Assembly (NCBI RefSeq): GCF_044324785.1
Contig: NZ_CP172127.1
Strand: one strand, 5' to 3'
DNA from: Escherichia coli
GTDB taxonomy: Bacteria > Pseudomonadota > Gammaproteobacteria > Enterobacterales > Enterobacteriaceae
DNA: 64,000 nucleotides
The notes beneath the pieces were generated by a model. It made no database searches. It was not told the DNA's origin and worked only from the letters and a program-made list of their open reading frames with translations. This document shows, piece after piece, positions 14,057 to 50,336 of this stretch. Made by a program: the position numbers and the translations under genes. Position 1 is the first letter of the stretch. The number at the start of each line of letters is the position of its first letter.

Positions 14057-14166
14057 AATTTCTTTTATCATATTGATATTAATATAATTTGTTTGGTTTG
14101 ATTAAAAATGTACCCTCAATTATACCCGCAGTCCCTTTTGATATCGAAAGGGAATCACACTCGGGA

Positions 14167-15009
14167 TCAGGCTGAGAGCACAGAAGGAAAGTACCTGGCT
14201 ATTATATCGTTAATTCTGTCAATCAGTTCCAGCCTTTTGAAAGTGATGTGTGCAGATCCCTTCTTAAAGTATTTAATGATGAACATCTCGTCTTCATAGC
14301 GCTCTTTACCCTGAACGGACTGGATGTGACCATCCAGACGAATAGTGATGTTTTCCCGGTTGTCGGGGATCGGTTTGCCGCTGAACAGATGTAGCATTCT
14401 TTCCAGGTCGACGAGTCGGTCAGTCTGTTGCCCGGTGATAAGATGAAACCCCCACCGGTCCCACCTCACCAGGTTGTTGACGATAATTTTACTGCCAAAT
14501 TTGCAGGGGCAATTGGTTTTGTAATTCCAGCTCAGTCCCCTGAAGACGTTGATCACCCCTCGCTCAAACACCTCATCCTTATTCTGGTGTAGTTGTTCAA
14601 ATGTGATCAGAATGTTCGCTTCACTGATTTCCGGAAAATTATCGTACTCCAGTGACCGGTACCATGTATCACGGGCCTGTGCATCCATTAAGGAAAGCAT
14701 CCCTGAACGTTGCATCAGGTCACGCCAGATTTCGCGATCGAGATTGCGTGTGATGGCTTTCATTGCGGTTTCCGGTTTCTCCATCAGCCAGCAGCCGCAG
14801 CGAAAATCCTGTTTCATGGCCCAGCCCGGGGCGGCTTTACCGCCAATACTTTCTGTCATTGCTGATATTTCAGCCAGTTGCCGGATAAGTGTGTCGATTT
14901 GCAGCAGTGTACTCTTTCGTACAGCCAGAATGTGGCGGATATTGGTTGAGCAGATAACGTCCGTATGCCCGGTGACCACTTCCGGACGGGAGATTGTGAT
15001 GTCTGACAT
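14167..15009 (-). CDS. conserved island hypothetical protein (paralog at 45253-46122)
   Basis: 280-aa ORF with a near-identical paralog; sits beyond the CbtA toxin gene. Confidence 0.6.
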   Translation of the reverse strand: MSDITISRPEVVTGHTDVICSTNIRHILAVRKSTLLQIDTLIRQLAEISAMTESIGGKAAPGWAMKQDFRCGCWLMEKPETAMKAITRNLDREIWRDLMQRSGMLSLMDAQARDTWYRSLEYDNFPEISEANILITFEQLHQNKDEVFERGVINVFRGLSWNYKTNCPCKFGSKIIVNNLVRWDRWGFHLITGQQTDRLVDLERMLHLFSGKPIPDNRENITIRLDGHIQSVQGKERYEDEMFIIKYFKKGSAHITFKRLELIDRINDIIARYFPSVLSA

Positions 15010-15093
15010 TATCGGTTTCCCTTTTGGTTTATAAACGAAAACGCCAGCCCTGTTCAGGCTGACGTCAGTGGAATGAAGTATGGTGAGTGATAT

Positions 15094-15516
15094 TTACCGG
15101 TTCTGGTGCAGAAGCTGCAGGTGACGAAGAGTACGGACATCCTCCCGGGCCTGTTCGATACAGGGCAACAGTGCTGCCGAATCCGTTTTATCCTCATCGT
15201 TGTCAAAGATAATTCCCGATTCGCAGTCGATATTGTCCTGCAGCCACGCAATGAGGATATCCAGCGCTGTTTCAGTGGTTAATGGCATCACGCTCTGTAT
15301 CACTGTATTGTCTTCCGGCAACTGATGAGGGCTGGCAGAAGTCGCCGGTGTTTCGGTAGCGTCACGTTTATCCACCACGCGGAGTGAATAACCGTTTTCA
15401 GCGACCTTGTTAATCAGTTCAATGAGATTAACACCATCGACGTCAACGACAATTCGCCCCATGTTCAGCGCCTGCACGTTAACGCTGTCGGCTTCCAGCG
15501 TCAGGGCCAGTTTCAT
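15094..15516 (-). CDS. hypothetical protein in yeeW-like position downstream of cbtA
   Basis: 140-aa ORF overlapping cbtA stop by 4 bp; N- and C-terminal parts conserved in copy 2 but the middle is replaced. Confidence 0.45.
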   Translation of the reverse strand: MKLALTLEADSVNVQALNMGRIVVDVDGVNLIELINKVAENGYSLRVVDKRDATETPATSASPHQLPEDNTVIQSVMPLTTETALDILIAWLQDNIDCESGIIFDNDEDKTDSAALLPCIEQAREDVRTLRHLQLLHQNR

Positions 15517-15890
15517 TGTTTCGCCTCCGGATGCTTACCCAGAGTAATGTTATTTACTGTTCGGTAATTGTCGCGGGTCATCAGGCCGGTCGCCCTGCGA
15601 GCCCGGAGGATATCGATGCTGTTTATTAACTGAGAGCGGGTACAGGCGCTGAATCCCGGCTGGTCGGTACGCACCAGCGCGTATTTTTCCACGAGAAAGT
15701 TCACCGCATCACACAGTGAAATGCCTGCCTCAATATGCTGCTCAATCACACGTTCATCAGCGAACGGTGTGTCATTCAGTGTGAGGCCGTAATGCTGGTC
15801 CAGCAGTCGGGTGAGCAGTGTATGCCAGATGGTGACGGGAGACGGGCAGCACGATGCCTCCCGTACGTGTGTGTCAGGTAATGTTTTCAT
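15513..15890 (-). CDS. cbtA: CbtA/YkfI/YpjF-family type IV toxin
   Basis: MKTLPDTHV...LTLNDTPFADERVIEQHIEAGISLCDAVNFLVEKYALVRTDQPGF recognised as CbtA family; track ORF trimmed to MKTLP. Confidence 0.8.
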   Translation of the reverse strand: MKTLPDTHVREASCCPSPVTIWHTLLTRLLDQHYGLTLNDTPFADERVIEQHIEAGISLCDAVNFLVEKYALVRTDQPGFSACTRSQLINSIDILRARRATGLMTRDNYRTVNNITLGKHPEAKQ

Positions 15891-15936
15891 CTTAAGTTCT
15901 CTGTAACTGGTAGTGCTAAAGGTGAGATATTCGGGG

Positions 15937-16311
15937 TTATGAGGTGGTTGCGGGTGCCAGTGTCGGATAAACAGCCATATAAACGTAACCACAGGAGCCG
16001 AGGGTGTCGGCTTCACAGGCCAGCCCCTTCGCATACAGTGTCACGGTATGCTGATGGCGGGGATTCAGTTCACCGCTGGTGAGCATGAGCTCCAGTTGTT
16101 TCATCAGCAGCGGAAAGGCCTGGTCCAGGTGGTACGCATCTGCATCGCTGAACAGGCCTCTGATACCGGCGCGGTCGGCAAGGTAATGCAACCGGTTACC
16201 CTCCTGCACCAGACGTGCCCCGAAACAGGGCGTCACGGTGCAGGGCAGCCCCCACCAGGGGCGGTCGTGATTGTCGTCGGGAAGTGTTGTCCCGGGGAGT
16301 GTGTCTGACAC
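15937..16311 (-). CDS. cbeA: CbeA/YafW/YfjZ-family antitoxin
   Basis: 124 aa MSDTLPGTTLPDDNHDRPWWGLPCTVTPCFGARLVQEGNRLHYLADRAGI...; immediately upstream of toxin. Confidence 0.8.
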   Translation of the reverse strand: MSDTLPGTTLPDDNHDRPWWGLPCTVTPCFGARLVQEGNRLHYLADRAGIRGLFSDADAYHLDQAFPLLMKQLELMLTSGELNPRHQHTVTLYAKGLACEADTLGSCGYVYMAVYPTLAPATTS

Positions 16312-16386
16312 GATAAAATCCTCACAGAAAATCGGTTAAGAATGGTCCGGTAGTGGCGATAATTCTGCTCATCAGAATGCCCTGAC

Positions 16387-16608
16387 TCAGTTCAGGGTGA
16401 CACTCATCAGGCGGACATACGGGCCAAAACTGTCCTTACGGCGTTCTGCAAATACAGCCAGCACACCGGGAATATCCTGCACTTCACGACCGGTATACGC
16501 CTCAGCACTGCCGTGCCAGCGGTATTTACCGGTACAGAACGGAAAAAGACGGGATGTCGGATGTTGTTGGTGAATACGCATGGCTTCACCACGGGTGATG
16601 ATTTTCAT
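16387..16608 (-). CDS. YeeT/YkfH/YpjJ-family small protein
   Basis: 73 aa; conserved position between radC-like and antitoxin genes. Confidence 0.65.
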   Translation of the reverse strand: MKIITRGEAMRIHQQHPTSRLFPFCTGKYRWHGSAEAYTGREVQDIPGVLAVFAERRKDSFGPYVRLMSVTLN

Positions 16609-16676
16609 GGTGTGATACCTCTGAAGACAGAAGATAAAAGTGAAAACAGGTGTGATGTGGTGGTGACGGTGACGGG

Positions 16677-17153
16677 TTAAAGCAGACCGTGTTCCGCAAA
16701 GGAGAAAACCTGGCTGCCACCGACTATCAGATGGTCCGGTACCCGGATATCCACCAGGCCCAGTGCCTGTACCAGACGTTCCGTGATAAGGCGGTCTGCC
16801 TTGCTGGGTGTGACTTCACCGGACGGGTGATTGTGTGCCAGCACCACGGCAGCGGCATTGTGGTACAGGGCGCGTTTAATCACTTCCCGGGGATGGACTT
16901 CCGTGCGGTTGATGGTGCCGGTGAAGAGGGTTTCACCGGCAATCAGCTGATTCTGGTTGTTCAGATACAGCACCCGGAATTCTTCACGCTCCAGTCCCGC
17001 CATGTTCAGAATCAGCCATTCCCGTGCCGCATGCGTGGAGGTGAAGGCCACGCCGGGTTCATGAAGATGGCGGTCCAGGGCTTTCAGGGCCCGCTGAATG
17101 AGGCTGCGCTCTCTGGTTGTCATTTCTCCGGGCAGAAAGGAAATCTGTTGCAT
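16677..17153 (-). CDS. RadC-like JAB-domain protein (YeeS/YkfG/YfjY family)
   Basis: 158 aa; JAMM-like HNHPSG motif (VLAHNHPSGEVTPSKAD). Confidence 0.8.
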   Translation of the reverse strand: MQQISFLPGEMTTRERSLIQRALKALDRHLHEPGVAFTSTHAAREWLILNMAGLEREEFRVLYLNNQNQLIAGETLFTGTINRTEVHPREVIKRALYHNAAAVVLAHNHPSGEVTPSKADRLITERLVQALGLVDIRVPDHLIVGGSQVFSFAEHGLL

Positions 17154-17168
17154 TGTTCCGGCCCCCTT

Positions 17169-17654
17169 TCAGTCAATGATGCGCATAATGGCGCTGCATT
17201 CCGGATGCTGCAGGGCGTAATCCCGCAGACGGTAATAATGAACCGTCATGGCATAACACTCCGTACGGCAGGCGTGATGACTGTACGTCATCAGACAGGC
17301 AGCAATGCCGGCGGCTTCCGGGCTCATTTCAGCGCGGTTACCGTTCATGGCATTGAACAGTACCCATGTTTCGTCATCATCATCATCCGGTTCGGGGGCC
17401 ATAAATGCCCCGCCGTTATTCAGTGTGTACAGATTCCAGATACCACCGCAGTAGTCTTCACACAGACGGTCCATCCAGCCGAAGACACGGGGCTCCAGGG
17501 TCACCCACTGTGGAATGAGGCCAAAGTGCTGTGGCCAGAAGCTGATGCACTGTTCATCAGGGACGGGAGTGGCAACCAGTTGAGACTGGTTATTCCCTGA
17601 TGCAGTAGTTACGGAAACAGAAGGTGTGGTGGAATTATGTGAAACGGTTGTCAT
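17169..17654 (-). CDS. antirestriction protein (KlcA/ArdB-like, YfjX/YafX family)
   Basis: Recognised family; start trimmed to MTTVSHN to match copy 2 length (161 aa). Confidence 0.7.
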   Translation of the reverse strand: MTTVSHNSTTPSVSVTTASGNNQSQLVATPVPDEQCISFWPQHFGLIPQWVTLEPRVFGWMDRLCEDYCGGIWNLYTLNNGGAFMAPEPDDDDDETWVLFNAMNGNRAEMSPEAAGIAACLMTYSHHACRTECYAMTVHYYRLRDYALQHPECSAIMRIID

Positions 17655-17744
17655 GATATTATTCCTTATAAAAAGCAAATGAATGAAGAAGGCTCGGGGG
17701 CAGGGACAGACGTGAGTCAGGACGGCGCTTTCAGGTAAACGGTA

Positions 17745-18563
17745 TCAGCGCATGTTCTCCAGCAGCGTTTCCGCCATCACCCATAATGCGCGATTGAGCT
17801 TAATATCGGTGTCGATGCTGTGAATGGCCCGGGTATGGATACGTTTTCCTCTGGCACTGCGGCCGGAAATTCCGCCTTTCAGCATATTCTCCTGGATGGT
17901 CTGATATGCGCTCCACAGGTCCTTACCGTAATCCTCCCTGCGTCGTGGCGTAAGAATGTCAGCGGTGGTGACGGGCTGATGTTCGTCACCATAACGGTAA
18001 GTCAGGGCCGCCTGTGCCAGCGCCTGGCGTGCCGGTGGCGGCAGGACCAGCGACTGCATGGCATCACGCTTCTCCTCTATCCGGTCAAACACGCCCACCA
18101 CCTCGTAAGCCCCTTCGATAACTTTCTCCACTACATTTCCCCGGTGTGGAACACGCACTTCCCCCAGAGACTGGCCACAGACGCACCCGTTCTGGCAGAC
18201 GAACCTGAAGTAACCCGGCAGCATCTGGTAGCTGGAGGTACCGTCATGAGAGTTGAGCAGAATAATTTCAGGGACATGTTCTCCGTTTATCTCTCCGGCC
18301 CGCCGCAGACGCAGCATGTGTTTGGTATACCCCCGGCGGCCCGGGTCACGTACGCGGGTCTGGCAGGCGAAGAACGGCTGAAAGCCTTCCCGCTGCAGAT
18401 TTTCCAGGACGGTAATGGTGGGAATGTACGCATACCGTTCACTGCGGGAGGTGTGCCGGTCTTCCCCAAAAATACTGGGTACATGGCGTATCAGTTCTTC
18501 ATGTGTCAGCGGACGGTCACGGCGTATCTGGTTTACATGACCAAAACGACTTGCTAATCGCAT
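17745..18563 (-). CDS. DUF932-like protein (YfjQ/YafZ family)
   Basis: 272 aa, MRLASRFGHVNQIRRDRPLT...; conserved CP4-type island gene. Confidence 0.65.
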   Translation of the reverse strand: MRLASRFGHVNQIRRDRPLTHEELIRHVPSIFGEDRHTSRSERYAYIPTITVLENLQREGFQPFFACQTRVRDPGRRGYTKHMLRLRRAGEINGEHVPEIILLNSHDGTSSYQMLPGYFRFVCQNGCVCGQSLGEVRVPHRGNVVEKVIEGAYEVVGVFDRIEEKRDAMQSLVLPPPARQALAQAALTYRYGDEHQPVTTADILTPRRREDYGKDLWSAYQTIQENMLKGGISGRSARGKRIHTRAIHSIDTDIKLNRALWVMAETLLENMR

Positions 18564-18653
18564 GATTTGCTCCTTATGAATGAGTTAGCGGTATAAATGA
18601 AAAAGCCGCGTCTTCTGGAGAAGACGCGGCCTGATGGATCAAGTGAATGACGT

Positions 18654-18887
18654 TTATTGCCTGAGAATTCCCTCACTGGCGAGATACGGATTTAGCTGTT
18701 TTCCGGCATCAGGTTCAAAATTCCAGCACCGCCAGCGTAGCTGCCCTTCAGCATTGCGAATAACCAACCGGGAATATGTTCCCTGGTCATCTTCAGTAAA
18801 CACATTGCGGTAAGCTGTTTTGACGGCAACAGCCTGTTCGCGTGAGAAAGGGCCTTCGGGCAATAAACGTGATGTACAACCCGGCAT
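18654..18887 (-). CDS. DUF905-like small protein (YkfF family)
   Basis: ORF trimmed to internal Met to match 77-aa paralog at 50098-50331. Confidence 0.55.
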
Positions 18888-18957
18888 ATCTGTTGCTCCC
18901 TGAAAGTAAAAAGCCCCGGTCATGATGACCGGGGCCTGAAGGAGAGTGACCTGATTA

Positions 18958-21804
18958 TCAGAAAGTCACATTCAGCGTGGCCTGACCGTTATAACCTTCA
19001 GCGCTGCTGCCGCTGACACTGTGGGCATAACCGGCCTGAACGCCCAGGGTGATATTTTCCCGGACACGGGCTTCCAGTCCGGCCTGCAGGTCCAGTGACG
19101 TGCCATTCCGGGACGGTGAGAACGTCATGTTACTGCCGGCGGCGGCTGTACCCATGCTCATGTCACCCCGGGAGCTGAAAGTGCGGATAACAGAAGGCTG
19201 TACCCACCAGTTCACCGGCAGTTCACTCACACGGTGTTTTGTACTGTCGCGCAGAGTGTCACGGGATGAGGTGCCTTCGCCAAAGGTCATATCGTTGTGG
19301 CTGCCCAGACGGAAGCCGGCACGCACATGTTGTGTACTGCCATGCCCGAACTTCACATAACCGGCGTTATCCTGGCCGTCATCCAGGGAGAGCCCCTGCC
19401 AGGTGTACTGCAGTTGTGGCTCCAGCATCAGGTTGTCAGTGATACTGAAGGGCAGACCGGTTTCCAGTGAGCCCAGCCAGCCCCAGCCCCGGGCGCGGAA
19501 GTCGTTATTGTCCGATGACGCTTTCATGCTGTGGCGGGTTCCCTGTGCCACAATGTCAGCCCACAGGCCGGAGGACGTGTGTGTCAGATTCAGGTATCCG
19601 CCCAGGCTGCCGGCATCATCCCGGACCGTGCCGGCGCGGGAACCGTCATCATCCTTAACATCAACGGAAGAATGGCCTGCAGCACCATATACCCCTGTCG
19701 TCAGAGACATACCGGCAACCTCTGTTCTGAGCAGGTCACCCTCCAGATGGACGAAGCCATAGCTGCCGCTGCTTTCCGGCGTGGCTCCACGGGCAATACC
19801 GCCGTTGTTATCGTGACCGAGATGACCGCCCTGAATGCTGAGACGGACGCTGTTATTTTCACCGCTTACACCGGTCTGATGGCTGCGGGAGCCTGCCAGA
19901 ATCCGGTCATAGTCCATTGCCTGTGTCAGCATGGAGGCATACAGGGGGACTTCAGCACGATAAGCATTTTCACTGCGCAGGTACCAGTCTTCATCGCTGT
20001 CACGGTTCAGGGTGTAGTTAAAGGCTCCGGCCTGAAGCGGGCGACTCAGGGCAAACGCACCTTCTTCTGTGGTGGCACCATTCTGTGCATCCACAACCCG
20101 GATACCCTGTCCGGAGGTTGCCACCCCGAGGTTACTGTTTCCGACATTTGTAAACGCAAGCCAGGTTTTGCCGGTTGCCTGACCACCATTAATCACCAGC
20201 TGGTCAGAGGTATTGCTGCCATCAAGGCGAACACGCATATTGATGGTGCCACCCTGACCGGTGAGGTTACTGGTTGTCAGTTTATGGAACGTTACCGGGG
20301 CGTTGCCTTTTGCAACAGCACGGCTCAGTACGGCATCCGGTGTTGTCTGATTGTCAAAGTAAATCTCCCCTGCGTTAACAATATCGCCGGTACTGACCAC
20401 ATCACCATTCAGTACCATGCTGGCGCCTTTACTGAGCTGTGTTCTGCCACTCAGACTTCCCCCGGCAGCCAGCATCAGTGTTCCACGATGTCCGACAGTG
20501 GTGTTGCTGGCCTGTCCCCCGGCATTAACCGTAAAGCTGCCGCCATTTTCCAGCAGCAGGTCGCTGGCCTGACCGGATATGCCATCAATACTGAACTTAC
20601 CGCTGGCATTGGTCCCCTCAACAGTGGCACCACTGTCTGCTATCAGGGCACCACCGGATGTCATGGTGACATCTGTTGCCTTACCACCGGCAGACACTGC
20701 CAGGGTACCGCCGTCATCCACCAGTGTTTTCTGCGCTGAATGGCCCTCCAGTACATCCAGGCGACCGCCGGACTCCAGAACAACGCCGTCAGCCTTACCG
20801 TTTTCCACTGTGAAATTGCCCAGACGGTTGCTGCCGGTGACGGTTGCCGCCGTACTGGTGACCAGTGCGCCGCCCTGCGTCAGGGTGACATTCGTGGCTG
20901 TACCACCGGCGTTCACCTGCAGTTTGCCTTTCTGGTTAACGGTGGTGAAATCCGCCAGACCACCTTCCTTGATAATCTGCCAGCCGTCACTGTTAACAAC
21001 AGTGCCAGACGCCGTACCGCCGTTGTGCACATACTGGTACCCCCCATTCAGCGTGGTATCCAGTGCGTGACCATGTACAGTCTGGTCGCCGCCGGCATAA
21101 ACCACAGTGGTATTTGCCGTTCCTTCAGCAGCCACAATCTGACGACCATTTTTATTGATGGTGGTGCGTACGGCATCTCCGTAGACGGTCTGCCCGGTAT
21201 CACCATTTTCCGCATCCGGTCCCCCTTCCGCGCCGGTATTCACAACCGTGTCGGTTGCCACTGCGCCGGATTTGACGGCCTGCCAGCCCTTCTCATTAAT
21301 GACGGTACCCGTTGCAATCCCGCCTTCATGTACCCACTGCTCACCGCCGTTCAGCGTGGTGTTCACTGCCTGCCCCTGAAGGCTCTGTCCGCCTCCGGCA
21401 CTGATAACCGTGTCTGAAACGCTTCCTCCGGCATTCACTCTCTGAAGACCACCACCGGTGACAGTAGTGTTGTTGGCGATACCGCCATTTTGTATCCATT
21501 GCCCGCCGGTATTGACCTCGTTATCCGGCCCATACTCCAGCCCGGTACTGATGGTCATTCCGTTGGTCGTACCGAAGACAATCTGGTTGTCATGATTTTC
21601 CAGTGCTCCGCCGCTCACGGTTTCTCCCGCCTGTACAACCGTGTCAGCAGCCAGTGCCGGGACTGATGTGACAGCAGCAAGAGACAGCGCAACCGCCACA
21701 CCGGCGCGTTTTCCCCGTGAGCGGGCCAGTTCGGAGGCCACCACCAGGGTGCCCGTAATGTGATTCCATACCAGCCTGTAGCTGGTGTTCAGATGTCGTT
21801 TCAT
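18958..21804 (-). CDS. flu: antigen 43 (Ag43) self-associating autotransporter adhesin
   Basis: [31 protein letters not shown] signal region, repetitive Gly/Thr/Asn-rich passenger, C-terminal beta-barrel ending ...TLNVTF; start trimmed to MKRHL (948 aa). Confidence 0.85.
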
Positions 21805-22017
21805 CAGCTTTTCCTTACAGAGGGTGAATAAAAAAGCCGGTACCCACAAATGTGGATACCGGCAGGTACAAAACAGCATGGTCAGATAAAGTGTTTTTTC
21901 CCGGACATAAATGCTTCCCCTCTCTCATCCGCCAGAGAAGTATCAGTCCGTTGTGTGCAATTCCGTTCTGCATGATGAAGAGATTCAGCTGCCTTTTCGC
22001 AGGCCATTAACCACTAT

Positions 22018-22060
22018 AAATGATCGATTGTGACGATCGATACCTGTTTTATCGATCGTT
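22018..22060 (-). promoter_or_regulatory. agn43 phase-variation switch: three GATC Dam sites (OxyR operator region)
   Basis: GATC at about 22022, 22035, 22054 in TGATCGATTGTGACGATCGATACCTGTTTTATCGATCG, about 220 bp upstream of the flu start. Confidence 0.6.
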
Positions 22061-22176: not shown

Positions 22177-23112
22177 TCAGAAGAAAATCCAGTTCCATAC
22201 CGCGCGGGCAACAGAGACCACGGTGTCACGGACGGCACGCAGAACCGTACGAGCCACAGAGGCAACACAGACGCTCTCCGCCGTGTCAAATATCCGGTCC
22301 ACCGCACCGGTAAACTGTTCACGGGCCTGCCCCCGGACAGATTCCGTGCACAGCTCGTCCTGCAGGCGGGTCATCAGGGGACTGGCGGCATGGTCGGGAA
22401 GTGCTGTCATGAGCGCACTGACCAGCGTATCCAGTTCCCAGCCGGTGCGGGCCGATACGGCCACAACCGGATGTACGGGCCGGAACAGCCGGAATACCGC
22501 ATCTGTTTTCTCACGAATGTTCTGTTCCTGTGCGGGAGAAGGCTGAATACCTGCCATATCCCATTCATGGCAGGGCTCCGTTTTGTCGGCCTGCGTCACC
22601 ACAAACAGCACCTGCTGATGTCCCCGGTGCAGGATGTGTCGCCAGAAATAGTCATCCACAGACAGGGCCCGGTCATCGGCTTTAATCAGCCACAGTACCA
22701 GGTCAAGTTCAGGCAGAATGTCACGGTACAGGGCTTCATACTCTGCATCCCTGTCCCGGCTCTCGCCCACCCCGGGCAGGTCAGTGATAACCATGCTGTG
22801 ACCATGGCCACTCAGACGGAAGCGCTGCACTTCCCGGGTGCCGGCGTGAACATCACTGACCGGGGTGACCTCCCCCTGAAACAGTGCATTACAGAGTGAG
22901 GATTTACCGGCCCCGCTTTTTCCCATAATGCCAATCACGGGTTCGTGGCTGGTGAGTTTGCGCAGATGTTCCAGGATGTGACGGGAAAGTGAGTAAGGCA
23001 GGGAGGAGAGCGGTTTTTCAATTGCCTCAATGGCATCAGACGGATTCATACATGTATTCCCGGTGAAAAAAGACAAAACCCCGCGCACCGGAAAGGTGGC
23101 GGGGGGATTCAC
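22177..23112 (-). CDS. YeeP/YfjP/YkfA-family GTPase
   Basis: P-loop GIMGKSGAGKSSL; true start may be the internal Met at about 23049. Confidence 0.75.
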   Translation of the reverse strand: MNPPATFPVRGVLSFFTGNTCMNPSDAIEAIEKPLSSLPYSLSRHILEHLRKLTSHEPVIGIMGKSGAGKSSLCNALFQGEVTPVSDVHAGTREVQRFRLSGHGHSMVITDLPGVGESRDRDAEYEALYRDILPELDLVLWLIKADDRALSVDDYFWRHILHRGHQQVLFVVTQADKTEPCHEWDMAGIQPSPAQEQNIREKTDAVFRLFRPVHPVVAVSARTGWELDTLVSALMTALPDHAASPLMTRLQDELCTESVRGQAREQFTGAVDRIFDTAESVCVASVARTVLRAVRDTVVSVARAVWNWIFF

Positions 23113-38816: not shown

Positions 38817-38827
38817 TGGATTTGCCC

Positions 38828-39733: not shown

Positions 39734-40056
39734 TTTTTTGCACGCCCGTATTCAACGGCTTCTTTAAGGAGTTCATTTTCCATCGTTTTTTTGCCGAGCA
39801 GGCGCTGGAGTTCTTTAATCTGCTTCATGGCAGCAGCAAGTTCAGAGGCAGGAACGACCTGCTCTCCTGCGGCCACAGCAGTAAGACTTCCCTCCTGGTA
39901 TTGCTTGCGCCAGAGAAATAACTGGCTGGCTGCCACACCGTGTTGCCGGGCAACAAGGGAGACCGTCATTCCCGGTTCAAAACTCTGCTGAACAATAGCG
40001 ATCTTTTCCTGTGTAGTACGCCGTCTGCGTTTCTCCGGTCCTAAGACATCAATCAT
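39691..40056 (-). CDS. insC: IS2 OrfA (InsC)
   Basis: [56 protein letters not shown]; track ORF trimmed to MIDVLG. Confidence 0.9.
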
Positions 40057-40613: not shown

Positions 40614-40931
40614 ATGAGCAAAACTCGTCGGACTAAACGCACCTTTTCCCCGGAGTTCAGGCTCGAAGCTATCGAGCAAGTAGTTAAATACCAGCGCGAT
40701 GTCAGAGAAGTCGCGCTGGCACTTGAGCTCAATCCTGACCATTTGCGTAAATGGATACGGTTGTATAAGCTGGAACTTCAGGGTATTGAGCCCGCTGGTA
40801 ATGCCATACCCCTGAACAGCGAGAAATTCAGCAGCTTAAAAGCGCAGATAAAGCGCCTTGAGATGGAAAAAGAAATACTAAAGCAGGCTGCCGTGCTGAT
40901 GAGCGAAATCCCCGGCAAGCTGTCGCGCTAA
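40614..40931 (+). CDS. IS3-family transposase OrfA; downstream orfB truncated
   Basis: 105 aa with HTH and leucine-zipper-like C-terminus; orfB-like frame continues to about 41060 and is cut. Confidence 0.65.
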   Translation: MSKTRRTKRTFSPEFRLEAIEQVVKYQRDVREVALALELNPDHLRKWIRLYKLELQGIEPAGNAIPLNSEKFSSLKAQIKRLEMEKEILKQAAVLMSEIPGKLSR

Positions 40932-41099
40932 TCACACTGCTGAAAGCAAAGCGGCCAGTGCGGATTATTTGTCATTTATTCGGTGTTCACCGTAGCGTTT
41001 ATTACGCGCAGGTGAAGCGTCCTGTTAATGTATCAGCGCCAATGATATAAGACAGTAATTAGGATTCGGACGATTTCCTGGACTGCTTTATTATGCCAG

Positions 41100-42868: not shown

Positions 42869-44131
42869 CTATTTTAATGGATTGTTAATCTTTGCATATT
42901 CAAACGGGCTGATACATTGTTCTCTGTTCGCACCCAGAAAATCTGCCCACCACTGTAGCATCAGTCGACGTTCTTCCAGATGTTCTGCTTTATGGATATA
43001 TGCAGCACGTACACCATTACGCTCCTGATGGCTCATCTGACGTTCCACAGCATCGCGGGACCACAAACCTGATTCAATCAATGCACTGCACGCCATCGCC
43101 CGGAATCCATGACCACAGACTTCCTGGGTTGTGTCATATCCCATCACCCTCAGGGCTTTATTTACAGTATTTTCACTGATCGGTTTACGCGGGTCATGTG
43201 CTCCCGTAAAGATCAGACCATTTTCACCAGCCCATGTCTGTAGTTCTGTCAGTATGGCTACAGCCTGTTTGCTGAGTGGCACAAGATGTGGTGTTCGCAT
43301 CTTGGAGCCCCGGTGTGAGTATTTTACGCCTGGCAGAGGTTCGCGTTCGGCTGGAATAGTCCACATGGCATTGTCAATATCAATTTCAGACCAGCGGGAA
43401 TATCTGAGTTCACTGGAACGAATAAAAACCAGTAAATTCAGCATAACTGCCAGTCGGGTGACAGGCTGACCTTTATAACCGTCAATACGCGACAGAAGTT
43501 CAGGCAGGCGTGAAAGATCCAGAGCAGGGCGATGCTGGCGTTTTACCGTGGTCAATGCACCAGCCATATCCAGAGCCGGGTTATATCTGATGATGCCAGA
43601 CTGTACGGCATAACGCATTACAGCAGATATTCTTTGCTGCAGACGACTGGCGATTTCATAAATTTGTTTTGCTTCTGCAGCACGAACAGGGATAAGCAGG
43701 TCCGGGGTATTGAGTGTTGTGATATCCCGGTTGCCGATAAAGGGGAAAACGTGTGTCTCGAGGCTTTTGATTACTTTATCGCTGTGTGATTGTGCCCATT
43801 GTTTATTACTGGCATGCCAGCGTCGTGCAATATGTTCAAAAGAGAGTTGTAAATCAGGGACTACTTTTTTAGCTCTTTTTTGTTCGCAAGGGTCAATCCC
43901 CTCTGAAATCAGTTTTCGGGCCTCATCCCGTTTTGTACGAGCTTCGGAGAGAGAAACTTCTGGATATACACCAAGTGCCAGAGTCTTCTCCTTACCCAGA
44001 ATACGATAACGGAGACGCCAGTAACGGGAACCATTAGGATGAACCAGCAGGAACATGCCAGCCCCGTCAGTGAGTTTATAAGCCTTGTCAGTGTGCTTTG
44101 CAGCCCGGATTTTTGCGTCAGTCAGTGCCAT
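42869..44131 (-). CDS. P4-type (IntA-like) tyrosine integrase
   Basis: 420 aa; MALTDAKIRAAKHTDKAYKLTDGAGMFLLVHPNGSRYWRLRYR N-terminus typical of P4-family integrases; next to tRNA-Phe 3'-end repeat. Confidence 0.85.
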   Translation of the reverse strand: MALTDAKIRAAKHTDKAYKLTDGAGMFLLVHPNGSRYWRLRYRILGKEKTLALGVYPEVSLSEARTKRDEARKLISEGIDPCEQKRAKKVVPDLQLSFEHIARRWHASNKQWAQSHSDKVIKSLETHVFPFIGNRDITTLNTPDLLIPVRAAEAKQIYEIASRLQQRISAVMRYAVQSGIIRYNPALDMAGALTTVKRQHRPALDLSRLPELLSRIDGYKGQPVTRLAVMLNLLVFIRSSELRYSRWSEIDIDNAMWTIPAEREPLPGVKYSHRGSKMRTPHLVPLSKQAVAILTELQTWAGENGLIFTGAHDPRKPISENTVNKALRVMGYDTTQEVCGHGFRAMACSALIESGLWSRDAVERQMSHQERNGVRAAYIHKAEHLEERRLMLQWWADFLGANREQCISPFEYAKINNPLK

Positions 44132-44317: not shown

Positions 44318-44328
44318 TGATATGAATT

Positions 44329-44347
44329 TGGTGCCCGGACTCGGAAT
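44329..44347. repeat. 19-bp direct repeat of tRNA-Phe 3' end (att site)
   Basis: TGGTGCCCGGACTCGGAAT is the reverse complement of the tRNA-Phe 3' terminus; sequence diverges from the tRNA beyond 19 nt. Confidence 0.6.
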
Positions 44348-44594
44348 GAAACTGGTTGTATAACAAGTTGTTTTATATTGATTGTTTTGTGTTTGTTATT
44401 TTTGAGGCCACCAATGAGGCCCCCATGTGCAATTCGAATTCTTTTGACGCTATAATCCCTCTTTCTTGTGGTTTGTTGTAATCATTTTGTCTGGTTCGAT
44501 ATGCTGAATCGCGGAATCGAAGTGACAACAAAATACAGAGATTTATAAAATACCTGGCTACCTGTGTTAGGGAGCGTTAACGCACAGATTTTGT

Positions 44595-44921
44595 TTATGG
44601 CTGCCAGAAATGATCTGATGGTTTGTCGTCTGGCTCTGCAAGTACCCTGTTGATATCCCGGGAACCATGAACGATACGTTCGATACGAACTTCAGTATCC
44701 AGTACCCTGAACAGCAGAAGGTAACGACCATACGAACAACCTCTGATCCCAGCCCCTAACTCGGGTCTTTCTCTGTAGAGTACTGGCGATTCGGCTATCA
44801 ACAGACATTGTTGGTAAAGCTCTTCGGTAAAACTGATTGCACGGACAGGATTATCCTGAGCGATCCAGTCACCTATAGCTTCAAGATCGTGTTCTGCTAA
44901 TGGTGAAACAGTCAGTTTCAT
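44595..44921 (-). CDS. parE: ParE/RelE-family type II toxin
   Basis: 108 aa; overlaps upstream antitoxin gene by 4 bp. Confidence 0.7.
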   Translation of the reverse strand: MKLTVSPLAEHDLEAIGDWIAQDNPVRAISFTEELYQQCLLIAESPVLYRERPELGAGIRGCSYGRYLLLFRVLDTEVRIERIVHGSRDINRVLAEPDDKPSDHFWQP

Positions 44922-45181
44922 ATTGGCTGTTCACCTTCTGCCATCTTTTTGTATTTGTGCGTCAGTCGCCCGAATACCTCTTCAGCACTTTTACTTTCAC
45001 CGCTGTTGATGCCTGCGGTCACGGCGCTCTGGAGTGATTCAAGCTTTATCTGCTGTTCCCGTTCTTCCAGAGCACGAAGTCCGGCACGAATGACTTCACT
45101 TGTATTGTTGTACCGACCACTTTCTATTTGTTCGCGGATAAACGTTTCAAAGTAAGGACTGAGGGATACACTGGTAGGCAT
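44918..45181 (-). CDS. parD: ParD-family (RHH) type II antitoxin
   Basis: 87 aa; ...FIREQIESGRYNNTSEVIRAGLRALEEREQQ ParD-like signature. Confidence 0.7.
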   Translation of the reverse strand: MPTSVSLSPYFETFIREQIESGRYNNTSEVIRAGLRALEEREQQIKLESLQSAVTAGINSGESKSAEEVFGRLTHKYKKMAEGEQPI

Positions 45182-45252
45182 GGTTATTTTCTCGCCGATT
45201 GATCACTATCAATTAATAATAGTTAATATTCGTGAATTGTAAAATACCTCTT

Positions 45253-46122
45253 TTATGCCTTGCTGCTTTTGTTCACTGTGCTTGCCAGGGCTTCCGGGTA
45301 GTGTCTGGCAATAATATCATTAAGCCTGTCAACCAGCTCTGGTTTCCTGAACGTGATGTGCGCGGAGCCCTTCTTAAAGTATCTGATGCTGAACATCTCA
45401 TCTTCATAGTCCTCTTTACCCTGAACAGACTGGATGTGATCATCCAGATGAATGGTGATGTTTTCCCGGTTGTCGGGGATCGGTTTGCCGCTGAACAGGT
45501 GTAGCATTCTTTCCAGATCGGCAAGTCGATCTGCCTGTGGGCCGTTGTTCAGATGAAACCCCCACCGGTCCCACCTCACCAGGTTGTTGACGATAATTTT
45601 ACTGCCAAATTTGCAGGGGCAATTGGTTTTGTAATTCCAGCTCAGTCCCCTGAAGACGTTGATCACCCCTCGCTCAAACACCTCATCCTTATTCTGGTGC
45701 AGTTGTTCAAATGTGCTCAGAATGTTCGCTTCGCAGATTTCCGGAAAATTATCGTACTCCAGTGACCGGTACCATGTATCACGGGCTTGTGCATCCATTA
45801 ATGACAGCATCCCTGAACGTTGCATCAGGTCACGCCAGAGTTCGCGATCGAGATTCCGGGTGATGGCTTTCATTGCGGTTTCCGGTTTCTCCATCAGCCA
45901 GCAACCGCAGCGAAAATCCTGTTTCATGGCCCAGTCCCGGGCGGTTTTACCTCCAATACTTTCTGTCATTGCTGATATTTCAGCCAGTTGCCGGATAAGT
46001 GTGTCGATTTGCAGCAGTGTACTCTTTCGTACAGCCAGAATGTGGCGGATACTGGTTGAGCAAATAACGTCCGTATGCCCGGTGACCACTTCCGGACGGG
46101 AGGCTGTGATATCTGACATCAT
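45253..46122 (-). CDS. conserved island hypothetical protein (paralog of 14167-15009)
   Basis: 289 aa, near-identical to copy 1 over most of its length. Confidence 0.6.
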   Translation of the reverse strand: MMSDITASRPEVVTGHTDVICSTSIRHILAVRKSTLLQIDTLIRQLAEISAMTESIGGKTARDWAMKQDFRCGCWLMEKPETAMKAITRNLDRELWRDLMQRSGMLSLMDAQARDTWYRSLEYDNFPEICEANILSTFEQLHQNKDEVFERGVINVFRGLSWNYKTNCPCKFGSKIIVNNLVRWDRWGFHLNNGPQADRLADLERMLHLFSGKPIPDNRENITIHLDDHIQSVQGKEDYEDEMFSIRYFKKGSAHITFRKPELVDRLNDIIARHYPEALASTVNKSSKA

Positions 46123-46412
46123 CGTTTTTCCTTTTGGTTTATAAACGAAAACGCCAGCTGTATTCAGGCTGGCGTCAGGGGAATGAAGTATGGTGAGTGA
46201 TATTCACCGGTTCTGGTGCAGAAGCTGCAGTTGGCGCAGGGTACGGATATCTTCCCTGGCCTGTTCAATGCAGGGCAGCAGTGCTGTCGAATCCGTTTTA
46301 TCCTCATCGTTGTCAAAGATAATTTCCGATTCGCAGTCAATATTGTCCTGCAGCCACGCAATCAGAATATCCAGCGCTGTTTCCGTGGTTAATGATTTCA
46401 TGTTGTTCCAGG

Positions 46413-46901
46413 TTACCAGTTGAAAGTGGGTAAACCCGGCAGGCATTCAGCGCTGGCATCCAGATGAATGAGACTGACGCCATAACGTCGGGTAAGTGTG
46501 ACAACCAGACGGCGGAACGTTTTTGACAGGCCCAGGCGCTTAAGCCGCAAAACCGGGTATGACCACGCATCGGTACGTAACAGATATCCGCTACCTGTGA
46601 AATGAATCCATTCTGATTCGCCGGTGTCATTCGTCTGATGTGACAGCGAGTACAACCAGGCATTGTCCGTTTCCGTGATATGTGCGGTACTGCAGCGTAT
46701 GCCGGTAAGGGCCGCAGATGGTGGCGTGCGCTCTGCTGATGCCCGGTCAGATTCATCAACAACACGAAGGGAGTAACCGTTATCGCAGACCACGTTAATC
46801 AGTTCAGCGAGAGTAACACCATCGACGTCAACGACAATGCGCCCCATGTTCAGTGCCTGCACGTTAATGCTGTCGGCTTCCAGCGTCAGGGCCAGTTTCA
46901 T
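46413..46901 (-). CDS. hypothetical protein in yeeW-like position (variant of 15094-15516)
   Basis: 162 aa; N-terminal 50 aa match copy 1, then a divergent inserted segment; copy-1 C-terminus appears in a separate frame (46204-46446). Confidence 0.4.
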   Translation of the reverse strand: MKLALTLEADSINVQALNMGRIVVDVDGVTLAELINVVCDNGYSLRVVDESDRASAERTPPSAALTGIRCSTAHITETDNAWLYSLSHQTNDTGESEWIHFTGSGYLLRTDAWSYPVLRLKRLGLSKTFRRLVVTLTRRYGVSLIHLDASAECLPGLPTFNW

Positions 46902-47275
46902 TGTTTCGCCCCCGGATGTTTACCCAGGGTAATGTTATTTACCGTTCTGTAATTTTCGCGGGCCATCAGGCCGGTTGCCCGGCGTGCCCGGAGGATATCA
47001 ATACTGTTTATTAACTGAGAACGGGTACAGGCGCTGAATCCCGGCTGGTCGGTACGTACCAGCGCGTATTTTTCAACGAGAAAGTTCACCGCATCACACA
47101 GTGAAATGCCCGCTTCAATATGCTGCTCAATCACACGTTCATCAGCGAACGGTGTGTCATTCAGCGCGAGGCCGTAGTGCTGGTCCAGTAACCGGGTGAG
47201 CAGTGTCTGCCAGATGGTGACGGGAGACGGGCAGCACGATGCCTCCCGTACATGCGTGTCGGGTAATGTTTTCAT
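46898..47275 (-). CDS. cbtA: CbtA-family toxin, copy 2
   Basis: MKTLPDTHVREASCCPSPVTIWQTLL...; track ORF trimmed. Confidence 0.8.
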   Translation of the reverse strand: MKTLPDTHVREASCCPSPVTIWQTLLTRLLDQHYGLALNDTPFADERVIEQHIEAGISLCDAVNFLVEKYALVRTDQPGFSACTRSQLINSIDILRARRATGLMARENYRTVNNITLGKHPGAKQ

Positions 47276-47364
47276 AATGAAGATTTTCCTGATATGCAGA
47301 GATAAAAAATGGGACAGTGGCGTGGTGAAAGCACCAGGCCGGAGCAGAAGGTTATTCTGGAGAG

Positions 47365-47733
47365 TTACTTTTTCGTTTCGGGCGTCGGATAAACAGCCAT
47401 ATAAACGTAGCCACAACTGCCGAGGGTGTCGGCTTCGCAGGTCAGCCCTTTTGCATACAGTGTCACGGTATGCTGATGGCGGGGATTCAGTTCACCGCTG
47501 GTGAGCATGAGTTCCAGTTGTTTCATCAGCAGCGGAAAGGCCTGGTCCAGGTGGTACGAATCCGCGTCGCTGAACCGCCCTCTAATACAGGCGCGGTCGG
47601 CAAGGTAATGCAACCGGTTGCCTTCCTGTACCAGACGGGCACCAAAACAGGGCGTCACGGTGCAGGGCAGTCCCCACCAGGTGCGGTCGTTATTGTCGTC
47701 GGGAAGCGTTGTCCCGGGGAGTGTGTCTGACAC
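47365..47733 (-). CDS. cbeA: CbeA-family antitoxin, copy 2
   Basis: 122 aa paralog of 15937-16311. Confidence 0.8.
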   Translation of the reverse strand: MSDTLPGTTLPDDNNDRTWWGLPCTVTPCFGARLVQEGNRLHYLADRACIRGRFSDADSYHLDQAFPLLMKQLELMLTSGELNPRHQHTVTLYAKGLTCEADTLGSCGYVYMAVYPTPETKK

Positions 47734-47817
47734 GATAAAATCCTCACAGAAAATTGGTTAAGAATGGTCCGGTGGTGGCGATAATTCTGCTCTTCTGAAT
47801 GCCCTTCCAGACTCAGT

Positions 47818-48034
47818 TCAGGGTGACGCTCATCAGCCGGACATACGGACCAAAACTGTCCTTCCGGCGTTCTGCAAACACAGCCAGCACACCGGGAATA
47901 TCCTGTACTTCACGGCCGGTATATGTATCCGTGCTACCGTGTCAGCGGTATTTACCGGTACAGAACGGAAAAAGACGGGATGCAGGATGCTGACGGTGAA
48001 TACGCATGGCTTCACCACGGGTGATGATTTTCAT
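47818..48034 (-). pseudogene. YeeT-family gene, copy 2, with premature stop
   Basis: Collinear with 16387-16608, but the Trp codon in GKYRWHG reads as TGA in this copy. Confidence 0.45.
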
Positions 48035-48120
48035 GAGAATAGTCCTCCTGAATGTGAAAGTAAGAAACAGCTGAGAAAGAGAAACTGAAGTGATATGAAG
48101 GTGATTGTGACGGTGACGGG

Positions 48121-48597
48121 TTAAAGCAGACCGTGTTCCGCAAAGGAGAAAACCTGGCTGCCACCGATTATCAGATGGTCCGGTACCCGGATATCCACCA
48201 GGGCCAGTGCCTGTACCAGACGCTCGGTGATAAGGCGGTCTGCCTTGCTGGGGATGACTTCACCGGACGGGTGATTGTGCGCCAGCACCACGGCAGCGGC
48301 ATTGTGGTACAGGGCGCGTTTAATCACCTCCCGGGGATGGACTTCTGTGCGGTTGATGGTGCCAGTGAAGAGGGTTTCACCGGTAATCAGCTGATTCTGG
48401 TTATTCAGATACAGCACCCGGAATTCTTCACGCTCCAGTCCCGCCATGTTCAGAATCAGCCATTCCCGTGCCGCATGCGTGGAGGTGAAGGCCACGCCGG
48501 GTTCATGAAGATGGCGGTCCAGGGCTTTCAGGGCCCGCTGAATGAGGCTGCGCTCGCCGGGTGTCATCTCTCCGGGCAGAAAGGAAAGCTGCTGCAT
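48121..48597 (-). CDS. RadC-like JAB-domain protein, copy 2
   Basis: Paralog of 16677-17153; start trimmed to MQQLSF. Confidence 0.8.
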   Translation of the reverse strand: MQQLSFLPGEMTPGERSLIQRALKALDRHLHEPGVAFTSTHAAREWLILNMAGLEREEFRVLYLNNQNQLITGETLFTGTINRTEVHPREVIKRALYHNAAAVVLAHNHPSGEVIPSKADRLITERLVQALALVDIRVPDHLIIGGSQVFSFAEHGLL

Positions 48598-48612
48598 TGT
48601 CCCTGCCTCCAT

Positions 48613-49098
48613 TCAGTCGATGATGCGCATAATGGCGCTGCATTCCGGATGCTGCAGGGCATAATCCCGCAGCCGGTAATAATGAACCGTCATGGCATAA
48701 TTCTCTGTACGACAGGCGTGATGGCTGTACGCCATCAGACAGGCGGCAATGCCGGCGGCTTCCGGGCTCATTTCAGCGCGGTTACCGTTCATGACGTTAA
48801 ACAGCACCCATGTTTCGTCATCATCGTCATCCGGTTCAGGTGCCATAAATGCGCCACCGTTGTTCAGGGTGTACAGATTCCAGATGCCCCCGCAGTAGTC
48901 TTCGCACAGACGGTCCATCCAGCCGAAGACACGGGGCTCCAGGGTCACCCACTGTGGAATGAGGCCAAAATGCTGCGGCCAGAAGCTGATGCGCTGTTCA
49001 TCAGGGACGGGAGTGGCAACCAGTTGAGACTGGTTATTCCCTGATGCAGTAGTTACGGAAACAGAAGGTGTGGTGGAGCTATGCGAAAAGGTTGTCAT
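48613..49098 (-). CDS. antirestriction protein (KlcA/ArdB-like), copy 2
   Basis: 161 aa paralog. Confidence 0.7.
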   Translation of the reverse strand: MTTFSHSSTTPSVSVTTASGNNQSQLVATPVPDEQRISFWPQHFGLIPQWVTLEPRVFGWMDRLCEDYCGGIWNLYTLNNGGAFMAPEPDDDDDETWVLFNVMNGNRAEMSPEAAGIAACLMAYSHHACRTENYAMTVHYYRLRDYALQHPECSAIMRIID

Positions 49099-49189
49099 GA
49101 GATGATTCCTTATAAAAAGTAAATGAATGGAAGAATGCCTGGGGACTGGTACAGACGTGAGTCAGGGCTGCACTTTCAGGGAAACAGCA

Positions 49190-50008
49190 TCAGCGCATGC
49201 TCTCCAGCAGCGTTTCTGCCATCACCCACAACGCCCGGTTGAGCTTAATGTCGGTATCGATGCTGTGAATGGCCCGGGTATGGATACGTTTTCCTCTGGC
49301 ACTGCGACCGGAAATCCCGCCTTTCAGCATATTTTCCTGGATGGTCTGATAAGCACTCCACAGGTCCTTACCGTAATCCTCCCGGCGTCGTGGCGTCAGA
49401 ATGTCGGTAGTGGTGACGGGCTGATGTTCATCACCATAACGGTAAGTCAGCGCCGCCTGTGCCAGCGCCTGGCGTGCCGGTGGCGGCAGGACCAGCGACT
49501 GCATGGCATCACGCTTTTCCTCAATCCGGTCAAACACGCCCACCACTTCGTAAGCACCTTCAATCACCCTGTCCACCACGTTTCCCCGGTGGGGCACCCG
49601 GACTTCTCCCAGCGACTGACCGCAGACCAAGCCATTGGTGCAGATGGCACGAAAATATCCGGGTAACATCTGATAGCTGGATGAACCGTCATGGGAGTTG
49701 AGCAGAATAATTTCAGGCACATGCTGACCGGTTATCTGTCCGGCCCGCCGCAGACGCAGCATATGTTTGGTATATTCCCGGCGGCTCTGGTCGCGCACAC
49801 GGGTCTGGCAGGCGAAGAACGGCTGAAAGCCTTCCCGCTGCAGATTTTCCAGGACGGTGATGGTGGGAATGTACGCATACCGTTCACTGCGGGAGGTGTG
49901 CCGGTCTTCTCCAAAAATACTCGGGACGTGGTACATCAGTTCTTCGCGTGTCAGTGGGCGCTCCCGACGGATCTGATTTACATGACCAAAACGACTGGCT
50001 AATTGCAT
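49190..50008 (-). CDS. DUF932-like protein (YfjQ/YafZ family), copy 2
   Basis: 272 aa paralog. Confidence 0.65.
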   Translation of the reverse strand: MQLASRFGHVNQIRRERPLTREELMYHVPSIFGEDRHTSRSERYAYIPTITVLENLQREGFQPFFACQTRVRDQSRREYTKHMLRLRRAGQITGQHVPEIILLNSHDGSSSYQMLPGYFRAICTNGLVCGQSLGEVRVPHRGNVVDRVIEGAYEVVGVFDRIEEKRDAMQSLVLPPPARQALAQAALTYRYGDEHQPVTTTDILTPRRREDYGKDLWSAYQTIQENMLKGGISGRSARGKRIHTRAIHSIDTDIKLNRALWVMAETLLESMR

Positions 50009-50097
50009 ACTTTGCTCCTTATGAATGAATTAGCGGTATAAACGAAAAGGCCGCGTCTCCCGGAGAAGACGCGGCCTGATGGATGAAATGAAGACGT

Positions 50098-50331
50098 TTA
50101 TTGCCTGAGAATTCCCTCACTGGCGAGATACGAATTTAGCTGTTTTCCGGCATCAGGTTCAAAATTCCAGCACCGCCAGCGTAGCTGCCCTTCGGCATTG
50201 CGGATAACCAGCCGGAAATGCGTTCCCTGGTCATCTTCAATAAGCACATTGCGGTAAGCTGTTGTGACGGCAACCGCCTGTTCGCGTGAGAAAGGGCCTT
50301 CGGGCAATAAAACAGGGTGGCAGTCCGACAT
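50098..50331 (-). CDS. DUF905-like small protein, copy 2
   Basis: 77 aa paralog. Confidence 0.55.
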
Positions 50332-50336
50332 ACCGG

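Follow-up and report, generated by a model that had tools for sequence, protein, structure and literature searches.

In Escherichia coli K-12, three paralogous modules built around type IV toxin-antitoxin genes lie near the attachment (att) sites of P4-like prophages (PMC5371832). The CP4-44 module runs yeeP-isrC-flu-yeeR-yeeS-yeeT-cbeA-cbtA-yeeW, and its paralogues are found in CP4-57 (yfjP...yfjX-yfjY-ypjJ-yfjZ-ypjF) and CP4-6 (yafX-ykfG-ykfH-yafW-ykfI). Genes yeeP to yeeV have been reported in islands at pheU, pheV and selC (PMC6174562), and the modules called 'flu' and 'yee' are the most variable parts of the island GI-pheV, 'likely due to recombination' (PMC11537424); PMC3408504 contains nothing on the yee module. 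Here we analyze a 64,000-nucleotide stretch of an E. coli chromosome (contig NZ_CP172127.1, hereafter the window) that carries two copies of a yee module about 31 kb apart. We are highly confident that these copies are the integrase-distal end-modules of two islands accreted in tandem at pheV, beside the capsule (kps) genes.

The gene order and families of this locus are like those of CP4-44, and copy 1, together with its GTPase, IsrC RNA and Ag43, is the fuller counterpart. Copy 2, with its GTPase and YafY/YfjR-like regulator, resembles the CP4-57 layout. Identities to the K-12 proteins, given as copy 1 and copy 2, are 100% and 92% for YeeT, 97% and 95% for YeeS, 96% and 92% for CbeA, and 90% and 87% for CbtA; those to K-12 YeeW range over 67-84%, and the module DNA is 88-90% identical to that of CP4-44. 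Unlike CP4-44, the modules described here include DUF905, DUF932 and antirestriction genes, and continue after yeeW into DUF957 and DUF4942, whereas K-12 CP4-44 has yeeR at the DUF905-to-antirestriction position and a decayed end. Moreover, two modules share one tRNA locus here, as opposed to three separate loci in K-12.

The closest described island is GI-pheV (Nhu et al. 2024, PLoS Genet, PMC11537424), which likewise occupies the pheV-kps locus and has a P4-type integrase, att remnants of a 19-bp and an imperfect 23-bp kind, and flu and yee modules. That work treats GI-pheV as one modular island, and its main text does not mention two yee modules per locus ('tandem' and 'two copies' each occur 0 times). 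In contrast, an internal att remnant and a second integrase show two islands in series here, as in tandem accretion at tRNA genes, where two integrase-bearing units are likewise parted by a tRNA 3'-end remnant.

Two diverged copies of the yee module

The window covers the pheV-kps region in an orientation reversed relative to K-12. In a BLAST comparison of the window with itself, 14195-15284 matched 45305-46394 in direct orientation at 92.3% identity without a gap, and 15361-18867 matched 46746-50311, also in direct orientation, at 89.1% identity; a separate repeat search agreed. Taken as a whole, 14195-18867 is collinear with 45305-50311 in direct orientation, a repeat far above chance expectation, with copies spaced 31.1-31.4 kb start to start. 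The sole large break in the alignment falls in the yeeW-like gene, where 77 bp of copy 1 stand opposite 352 bp of copy 2. At the gene level, copy 1 spans 14167-18887 and copy 2 spans 45253-50331; the repeated DNA stops at 18867, within the 5' end of the copy 1 DUF905 gene, and at 50311 in copy 2. A preliminary description of this DNA had placed two collinear direct copies at 14160-18930 and 45250-50335, about 90% identical and 31 kb apart, and had suggested pairwise alignment as a check. The coordinates match the gene-level extent, and a global alignment of the copies gave 90.8% identity (422 differences in 4,596 ungapped columns, or 9.2% divergence).

Every gene in both copies lies on the minus strand. 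In order of transcription, the genes encode DUF905, DUF932, an antirestriction protein of the KlcA/ArdB type (Antirestrict), a RadC-like JAB protein, DUF987 (YeeT), CbeA_antitoxin, CbtA_toxin, DUF5983 (YeeW), DUF957 and DUF4942. Pfam names all of these families except DUF957, whose place between DUF5983 and DUF4942 comes from RefSeq orthologue annotation, and so confirms in both copies the toxin-antitoxin/RadC/antirestriction content first noticed. Multi-copy modules are a known assembly hazard, but nothing specific favors the idea that a single module was placed twice in this assembly. The sequence differences already contradict it: 422 positions and a 275-bp indel distinguish one copy from the other. 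Each copy also has unique flanks, and the identical two-module layout occurs in the independent complete genome AH50. We regard such an artefact as practically out of the question.

Probable tandem arrangement of two islands at pheV

The att sites were located by a pattern search with the pheV 3' end and were then confirmed against published attR strings (PMC11537424). The internal remnant, at 44329..44351 on the minus strand, is the pheV 3' end (TTTCATTCCGAGTCCGGGCACCA; 1 match against 0 expected). It corresponds to the '19-bp type' repeat of PMC11537424 and forms the boundary between island B on its right and island A on its left. The outer remnant, at 14035..14056 on the minus strand, is degenerate and attR-like. 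Its reverse complement reads TTCGATTCCGATTCCGG-CACCA, one base off the '23-bp imperfect attR' published for GI-pheV, TTCGATTCCGAGTCCGG-CACCA (PMC11537424). This remnant sits 110 bp outside copy 1, beside a fragment of the insertion sequence (IS) IS110 and kpsF, and the junction is kept in strains TUM9803, AH50, 1517k, EM10-18-28 and YP3. The outer and internal remnants differ by a 1-nt deletion and one substitution (23-nt type versus 19-nt type).

To the left of the internal remnant lies the P4-type tyrosine integrase of island A (42869..44131, minus strand), an intact protein of 420 amino acids (aa) with an NCBIfam integrase domain (E=9.5e-73) and the RefSeq orthologue WP_001596139.1. On the other side of the remnant, at the distal end of island B, an intact ParDE pair (44595..45181, minus strand) separates the att site from module 2. 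The pair consists of the ParE toxin (44595-44921) and the ParD antitoxin (44918-45181; NCBIfam TIGR02606, E=5e-28), with RefSeq orthologues annotated RelE/ParE and ParD. Thus copy 1 lies beside the outer att remnant, and copy 2 is parted from the internal one by ParDE alone.

These landmarks suggest two related islands of the P4-integrase type, head to tail downstream of pheV. Island A would run from 44351 down to the degenerate remnant at 14035-14056, in the order integrase, IS debris, assorted cargo, LysR regulator, YeeP-like GTPase, IsrC RNA, Ag43, module 1 and outer att. Island B would enter from beyond 64000 and extend down to the remnant at 44329-44351, its end made up of GTPase, YafY/YfjR-like regulator, signal-peptide protein, module 2, ParDE and att remnant. 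The modules would be in direct orientation because both islands use one att site in one orientation. ARAGORN and Rfam found no complete tRNA gene within the 64 kb, so pheV and the rest of island B must lie past 64000.

We compared the locus with a collection of 5426 complete E. coli genomes. The module is present in 5369 of the 5426; the number of places in a genome has a median of 3 and reaches 18. The junction between islands B and A (integrase 5' end, att remnant, ParDE, DUF4942, DUF957 and long DUF5983) was found in 451 genomes, 33 of them at no less than 99% identity. A second count of 259 genomes was not used for tandem junctions, since its 80% coverage could be reached without the integrase, and 451 is the better measure. 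AH50 has the layout described here: kps, module, Ag43 and onward to integrase, att, ParDE, module, YafY and GTPase. In strain 1223, which lacks kps, the island B end and its att remnant abut an integrase that is followed only by IS1 and IS5 copies and gene fragments; at this locus (14300-20232 in that strain) island A has been almost wholly lost, down to the integrase and IS debris.

Age of the copies and of their lesions

A segmental duplication in place, followed by independent divergence and decay, would also yield copies that are collinear, in direct orientation and marked by one lesion each. However, the flanking cargo differs, and an integrase and an att remnant lie between the copies. 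Nei-Gojobori comparison of nine genes gave a synonymous divergence (dS) of 0.09-0.46 between the two copies, much more than a strain-level duplication could account for, and nonsynonymous to synonymous ratios (dN/dS) of 0.06-0.45; given these values, the copies are old homologues under purifying selection. Near-zero dS together with a mutual closest relationship, the marks of a recent duplication, was not found for this pair. For each copy, other genomes contain nearer relatives. Copy 1 shares 99.5% identity with its TUM9803 counterpart, and island A, copy 1 included, is 99.5-99.7% identical in that strain, where a SPI-7-type conjugative element takes the position of island B. FORC_082 and EM10-18-28 match copy 2 at 100% identity over long stretches. 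Both lesions, moreover, are common to many other genomes and loci, as detailed below, and we consider a duplication in place very improbable.

The lesion in copy 2 is a nonsense codon, TGG to TGA, in the YeeT-like gene, as the preliminary description had reported; it falls at codon 31 of the DUF987 gene (47813..48034), which is therefore a pseudogene. The 81 bp carrying this TGA are 100% identical in 76 records, in which the gene is annotated 'internal stop'. FORC_082 and 97-3250 are annotated in this way, and one record is an island adjoining setC/yicL, the selC locus.

The second lesion concerns the yeeW-like gene, and here the earlier reading stands only in part. A replaced segment had been noted in copy 2; the difference is real (77 versus 352 bp), but it is copy 1 that carries the lesion. 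Copy 1 yeeW lacks the C-terminal domain of DUF5983, while copy 2 is complete, with N and C domains and a separate DUF957 gene downstream. The RefSeq orthologue of the copy 1 gene is annotated 'DUF5983 incomplete, missing C-terminus', with DUF957 coming next. Copy 1's short-yeeW junction occurs in one piece in at least 3321 of the 5426 genomes, with some loci annotated yeeW, and K-12 YeeW ends as the short yeeW of copy 1 does (84% identical).

By this distribution, both lesions are old inherited alleles circulating among strains, and not decay following a local duplication. The 'differential decay' of the preliminary description was thus an overstatement: both lesions are alleles widespread in other genomes and loci, and since neither is private to these copies, a local pair decaying at different rates is the wrong picture.

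Module genes and their proposed functions

Between the copies, protein identity is lowest for DUF905 (86%) and highest for CbtA, the antirestriction protein and RadC (96%). All coordinates in this section refer to the minus strand. The DUF905 protein is encoded at 18654..18887 in copy 1 and 50098..50331 in copy 2 (Pfam DUF905, E=2.3e-29). The DUF932 proteins (17745..18563 and 49190..50008) are identical at 252 of 272 positions; the first has a phrog_12094 match and the second a Pfam DUF932 match (E=5e-48). These are followed by the antirestriction proteins, of the KlcA/ArdB type, at 17169..17654 (Pfam Antirestrict, E=1.1e-35) and 48613..49098 (155/161 identical), and by the RadC-like JAB proteins at 16677..17153 (YeeS-like; Pfam RadC, E=8e-43; NCBIfam TIGR00608 above cut-off) and 48121..48597 (TIGR00608; 151/158 identical). 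Copy 1 DUF987 (YeeT; 16387..16608, Pfam DUF987) is an intact protein of 73 aa.

The CbeA/YeeU-family antitoxins are intact in both copies: 124 aa from a GTG start at 15937..16311 (Pfam CbeA_antitoxin, E=5.7e-52) and 122 aa at 47365..47733 (113/124 identical to copy 1). So are the CbtA-family toxins, each of 125 aa, at 15513..15890 (Pfam CbtA_toxin, E=5.6e-61) and 46898..47275 (120/125 identical). In copy 1 the CbeA gene lies upstream of the CbtA gene, and both proteins are full-length, covering 1-100 of 101 positions of PF06154 and 1-112 of 112 of PF06755. The short yeeW of copy 1 (15094..15516; Pfam DUF5983_N only) reads through in frame into DUF957, and an intact DUF957 gene lies within that frame (15094-15291). 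In copy 2, the complete DUF5983 protein, or long yeeW (46413..46901, 162 aa; Pfam DUF5983_N E=4.6e-30, DUF5983 C domain E=2.9e-20), is followed by DUF957 (46204..46401, 65 aa; annotated in the RefSeq orthologue). Both modules end in a DUF4942 protein, of 280 aa in copy 1 (14167..15009; Pfam DUF4942, E=2.7e-64) and 289 aa in copy 2 (45253..46122), the latter with a C-terminal tail unlike that of copy 1. NCBIfam named only RadC, ParD and the integrase; the remaining module proteins fall under DUF families of Pfam alone.

PADLOC returned no defence-system match for DUF4942, DUF932, RadC or the hypothetical proteins of island B, with weak GTPase and WYL matches only. With no such match for the module or for the island B hypothetical proteins, we dropped a reading of the locus as a defence island.

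From their families, the antirestriction, RadC and DUF932 proteins would help incoming island DNA to establish. RadC-like proteins have a proposed role in nucleic-acid processing and are typical of conjugative elements (PMC5512222). The type IV CbtA/CbeA (YeeV/YeeU) pair of each copy consists of intact, adjacent proteins that are 87-96% identical to the characterized K-12 pair, and would by analogy stabilise an island or delay division. In K-12, CbtA blocks FtsZ and MreB, and CbeA counteracts CbtA without binding the toxin (PMC5624674, PMC5371832). The present locus differs from K-12 in holding two nearly identical pairs (toxins 120/125). All three K-12 antitoxins of the CbeA type neutralise all three toxins (PMC5371832), and the two pairs described here probably cross-protect as well. 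With cross-protection, neither pair can enforce the retention of its own island while the other pair is present.

Possible recombination between and beyond the copies

Perfectly identical runs of at least 25 bp occur 47 times between the copies, 14 of them at least 50 bp long, and the longest are 152, 149 and 99 bp. The differences are clustered (variance/mean 5.3 per 100 bp), and the three longest runs beat all 5000 shuffles; such clustering fits a mosaic history. Painting of single-nucleotide polymorphisms also gave a patchwork among strains. The preliminary description had held that an identity too low for homologous recombination would speak against its proposal that RecA deletes the intervening DNA. 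With runs of up to 152 bp, and a bacterial minimal processing segment of at most 30 bp (PMC8918686), the proposal is not refuted on this ground.

Direct repeats on one replicon, with identical runs above the minimal processing segment, might act as an active switch, in which RecA-mediated exchange between one copy and the other deletes 31 kb with Ag43 in it at an appreciable rate. We consider this unlikely. Recombination is cut about 10-fold at <0.1% divergence and at least 1e4-fold at ~20% (PMC8918686), so that 9.2% divergence should bring strong mismatch-repair rejection; our own estimate is a ~100- to 1000-fold fall. A hybrid module left by the crossover would not be self-toxic, since antitoxins of the CbeA type cross-neutralise (PMC5371832), but the intact ParDE pair in the deleted interval could kill cells that lose it. 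Island loss is usually integrase-mediated, with reported deletion frequencies for pathogenicity islands of 5e-3 to 1e-6 (PMC7545054). Mismatch in the att repeats is reported to lower deletion by orders of magnitude (PMC11537424), and because the att remnants mismatch here, integrase-mediated excision of island A may itself be impaired.

The genome collection bears on the same switch. Among kps-bearing genomes, the kps-proximal module is followed by Ag43 in 847 and by island-B genes (YafY/GTPase-type cargo) in 336, a point in favor of the switch. We built the predicted product for the search from the kps flank, the left half of copy 1, the right half of copy 2 and the island B flank, and 336 genomes hold both flanks with a single module between them. 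However, many of these genomes simply have one B-type island that ends in a different gene, such as the EAL-domain gene of SF-166. A clonal pair differing by the deletion alone was not found in the collection.

Four genomes (EM10-18-28, FORC_082, 1517k and YP3) carry hybrid modules whose left end is of the copy 1 type and whose right end is of the copy 2 type, as a switch would also leave them. EM10-18-28 has a single module by kps. From kpsE into copy 1, as far as ~15480, it agrees with the window at 99-100% identity, and between ~48900 and ~52400 it agrees with copy 2 and island B at 99.6-100%. FORC_082, also with a single module by kps, is of the copy 1 type up to ~14770; it then follows copy 2 at 98-100% identity in two stretches, 46904-48900, where the DUF987 stop lies, and 49736-50990. 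A short yeeW as in copy 1 and a stop codon as in copy 2 thus occur together in this genome, whose YafY-type regulator gene is missing. In EM10-18-28 and FORC_082 alike, the left part with its flank matches copy 1 at 99-100% identity, and the right part with its flank matches copy 2 and island B at 99.6-100%. The hybrids of 1517k and YP3 have other switch points. The combination of short yeeW with copy-2-type CbeA and DUF987 occurs in a selC island as well. Judging from these junctions, crossovers within the module appear to have brought A-type and B-type contexts together on more than one occasion. Intrachromosomal deletion between the copies is a plausible source, but the hybrids could equally come from replacement by horizontal transfer, through two crossovers of which one falls inside the module and the other past pheV.

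In our reading, the modules are incidentally also homology patches, at which recombination within and between genomes makes the modules themselves mosaic. A crossover there can also link one module's left end with another's right end, and so collapse or swap the DNA between them. A more far-reaching version, which we advance only tentatively and hold to be somewhat less probable than its negation, makes the yee module a portable homology cassette: as nearly all P4-type islands end in it, tandem arrays would repeatedly collapse and entire sets of cargo would be swapped beside kps as a fixed anchor in the chromosome, ParDE and not CbtA/CbeA would guard the tandem state, and the single-module hybrids would be the products.

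Several points weigh against the account of two accreted islands whose end-modules serve in establishment and exchange. The right end of island B, its integrase and pheV lie outside the window, and we infer the history of tandem integration from the att remnants and other genomes. A simple one-crossover product is absent from the 5,426 genomes, where the best match to the exact product is 97.7% identical. The early identification of the copies as substrates for RecA-mediated deletion is accordingly neither refuted nor demonstrated: the direct orientation and the 47 runs of perfect identity (25 bp or longer) speak for it and the hybrids fit it, while the lack of a simple product and the 9.2% divergence speak against it. 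The hybrids also carry third-haplotype patches that are only 85-97% identical to either copy, and in EM10-18-28 and FORC_082 these are 0.5-2 kb long. Patches that match neither copy point to further exchange with other module copies, and the recombination history is more complex than a single event. Finally, 'establishment and maintenance' is a role that we infer for DUF905, DUF932, DUF987, DUF5983, DUF957 and DUF4942.

Neighboring genes of the two islands

As first noted, Ag43 lies beside copy 1 and a secreted protein with a YfjR-like regulator beside copy 2, and these make up the contents of a variable cargo slot in islands A and B, respectively. In island A, the Ag43/Cah autotransporter (flu) adjoins copy 1 at 18958..21879 on the minus strand (TUM9803 RefSeq orthologue 'Ag43/Cah family autotransporter adhesin', 99.7% DNA identity). 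The IsrC / IS102 small RNA lies upstream of it (21823..22059, minus strand; Rfam RF00124, 64.8 bits), between Ag43 and the YeeP-like GTPase (22177..23112, minus strand; RefSeq orthologue 'GTPase family protein'), as it does in CP4-44. The cargo adjoining copy 2 in island B (50337..51842, minus strand) consists of an open reading frame (ORF) for a signal-peptide protein (50337-51119; RefSeq orthologues 678 nt) and a YafY/YfjR-like regulator with HTH_11 and WYL domains (51162-51842). The YfjP/YeeP-like GTPase of island B lies beyond it at 52045..52929, minus strand. Each GTPase flanks the cargo slot of its island. The two share 36% protein identity, and as they are homologous at the protein level only, the shared backbone extends beyond the DNA repeat.

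Several further observations concern the remainder of the window. At its left lie the group 2 capsule genes kpsF, E, D, U, C and S, and orthologous loci elsewhere run on into yghD/gsp. Capsule region 2 (247-4885, plus strand) holds a 1169-aa ORF and a 339-aa ORF, both annotated as hypothetical in the orthologous TUM9803 locus. In island A, the debris beside the integrase (37390-42618) comprises an ISL3/ISEc38-like fragment, IS3-family fragments and a fragment of a phosphoethanolamine-transferase gene, according to the orthologous annotation of TUM9803 and AH50. A 156-bp inverted repeat (30016-30171 versus 63426-63581, 72-75% identity) corresponds by position to AlpA-like helix-turn-helix regulator genes of both islands, in opposite orientations. 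In island B, a 534-aa ORF (58727-60331, plus strand) has matches both to Pfam DUF3987 (E=2e-74) and to a DNA helicase family of PHROG, and is a P4-alpha-like replication protein, typical of such islands.

Discussion

The module, its recombinational mosaicism and its arrangement are already known and ordinary, and the layout is present in other sequenced genomes. The value of the present analysis lies in annotation: a 50-kb stretch is resolved into two islands with located borders, and its repeated toxin-antitoxin genes are recognized as standard island backbone, with little importance beyond this. If the 31 kb between the copies were lost, the strain would be deprived of one allele of the Ag43 adhesin, along with a few regulators and transporters, and would keep its capsule. 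Hybrids occur among the 336 genomes with YafY/GTPase-type cargo beside kps, in agreement with the published view of recombination as the way in which flu and yee modules of GI-pheV evolve.

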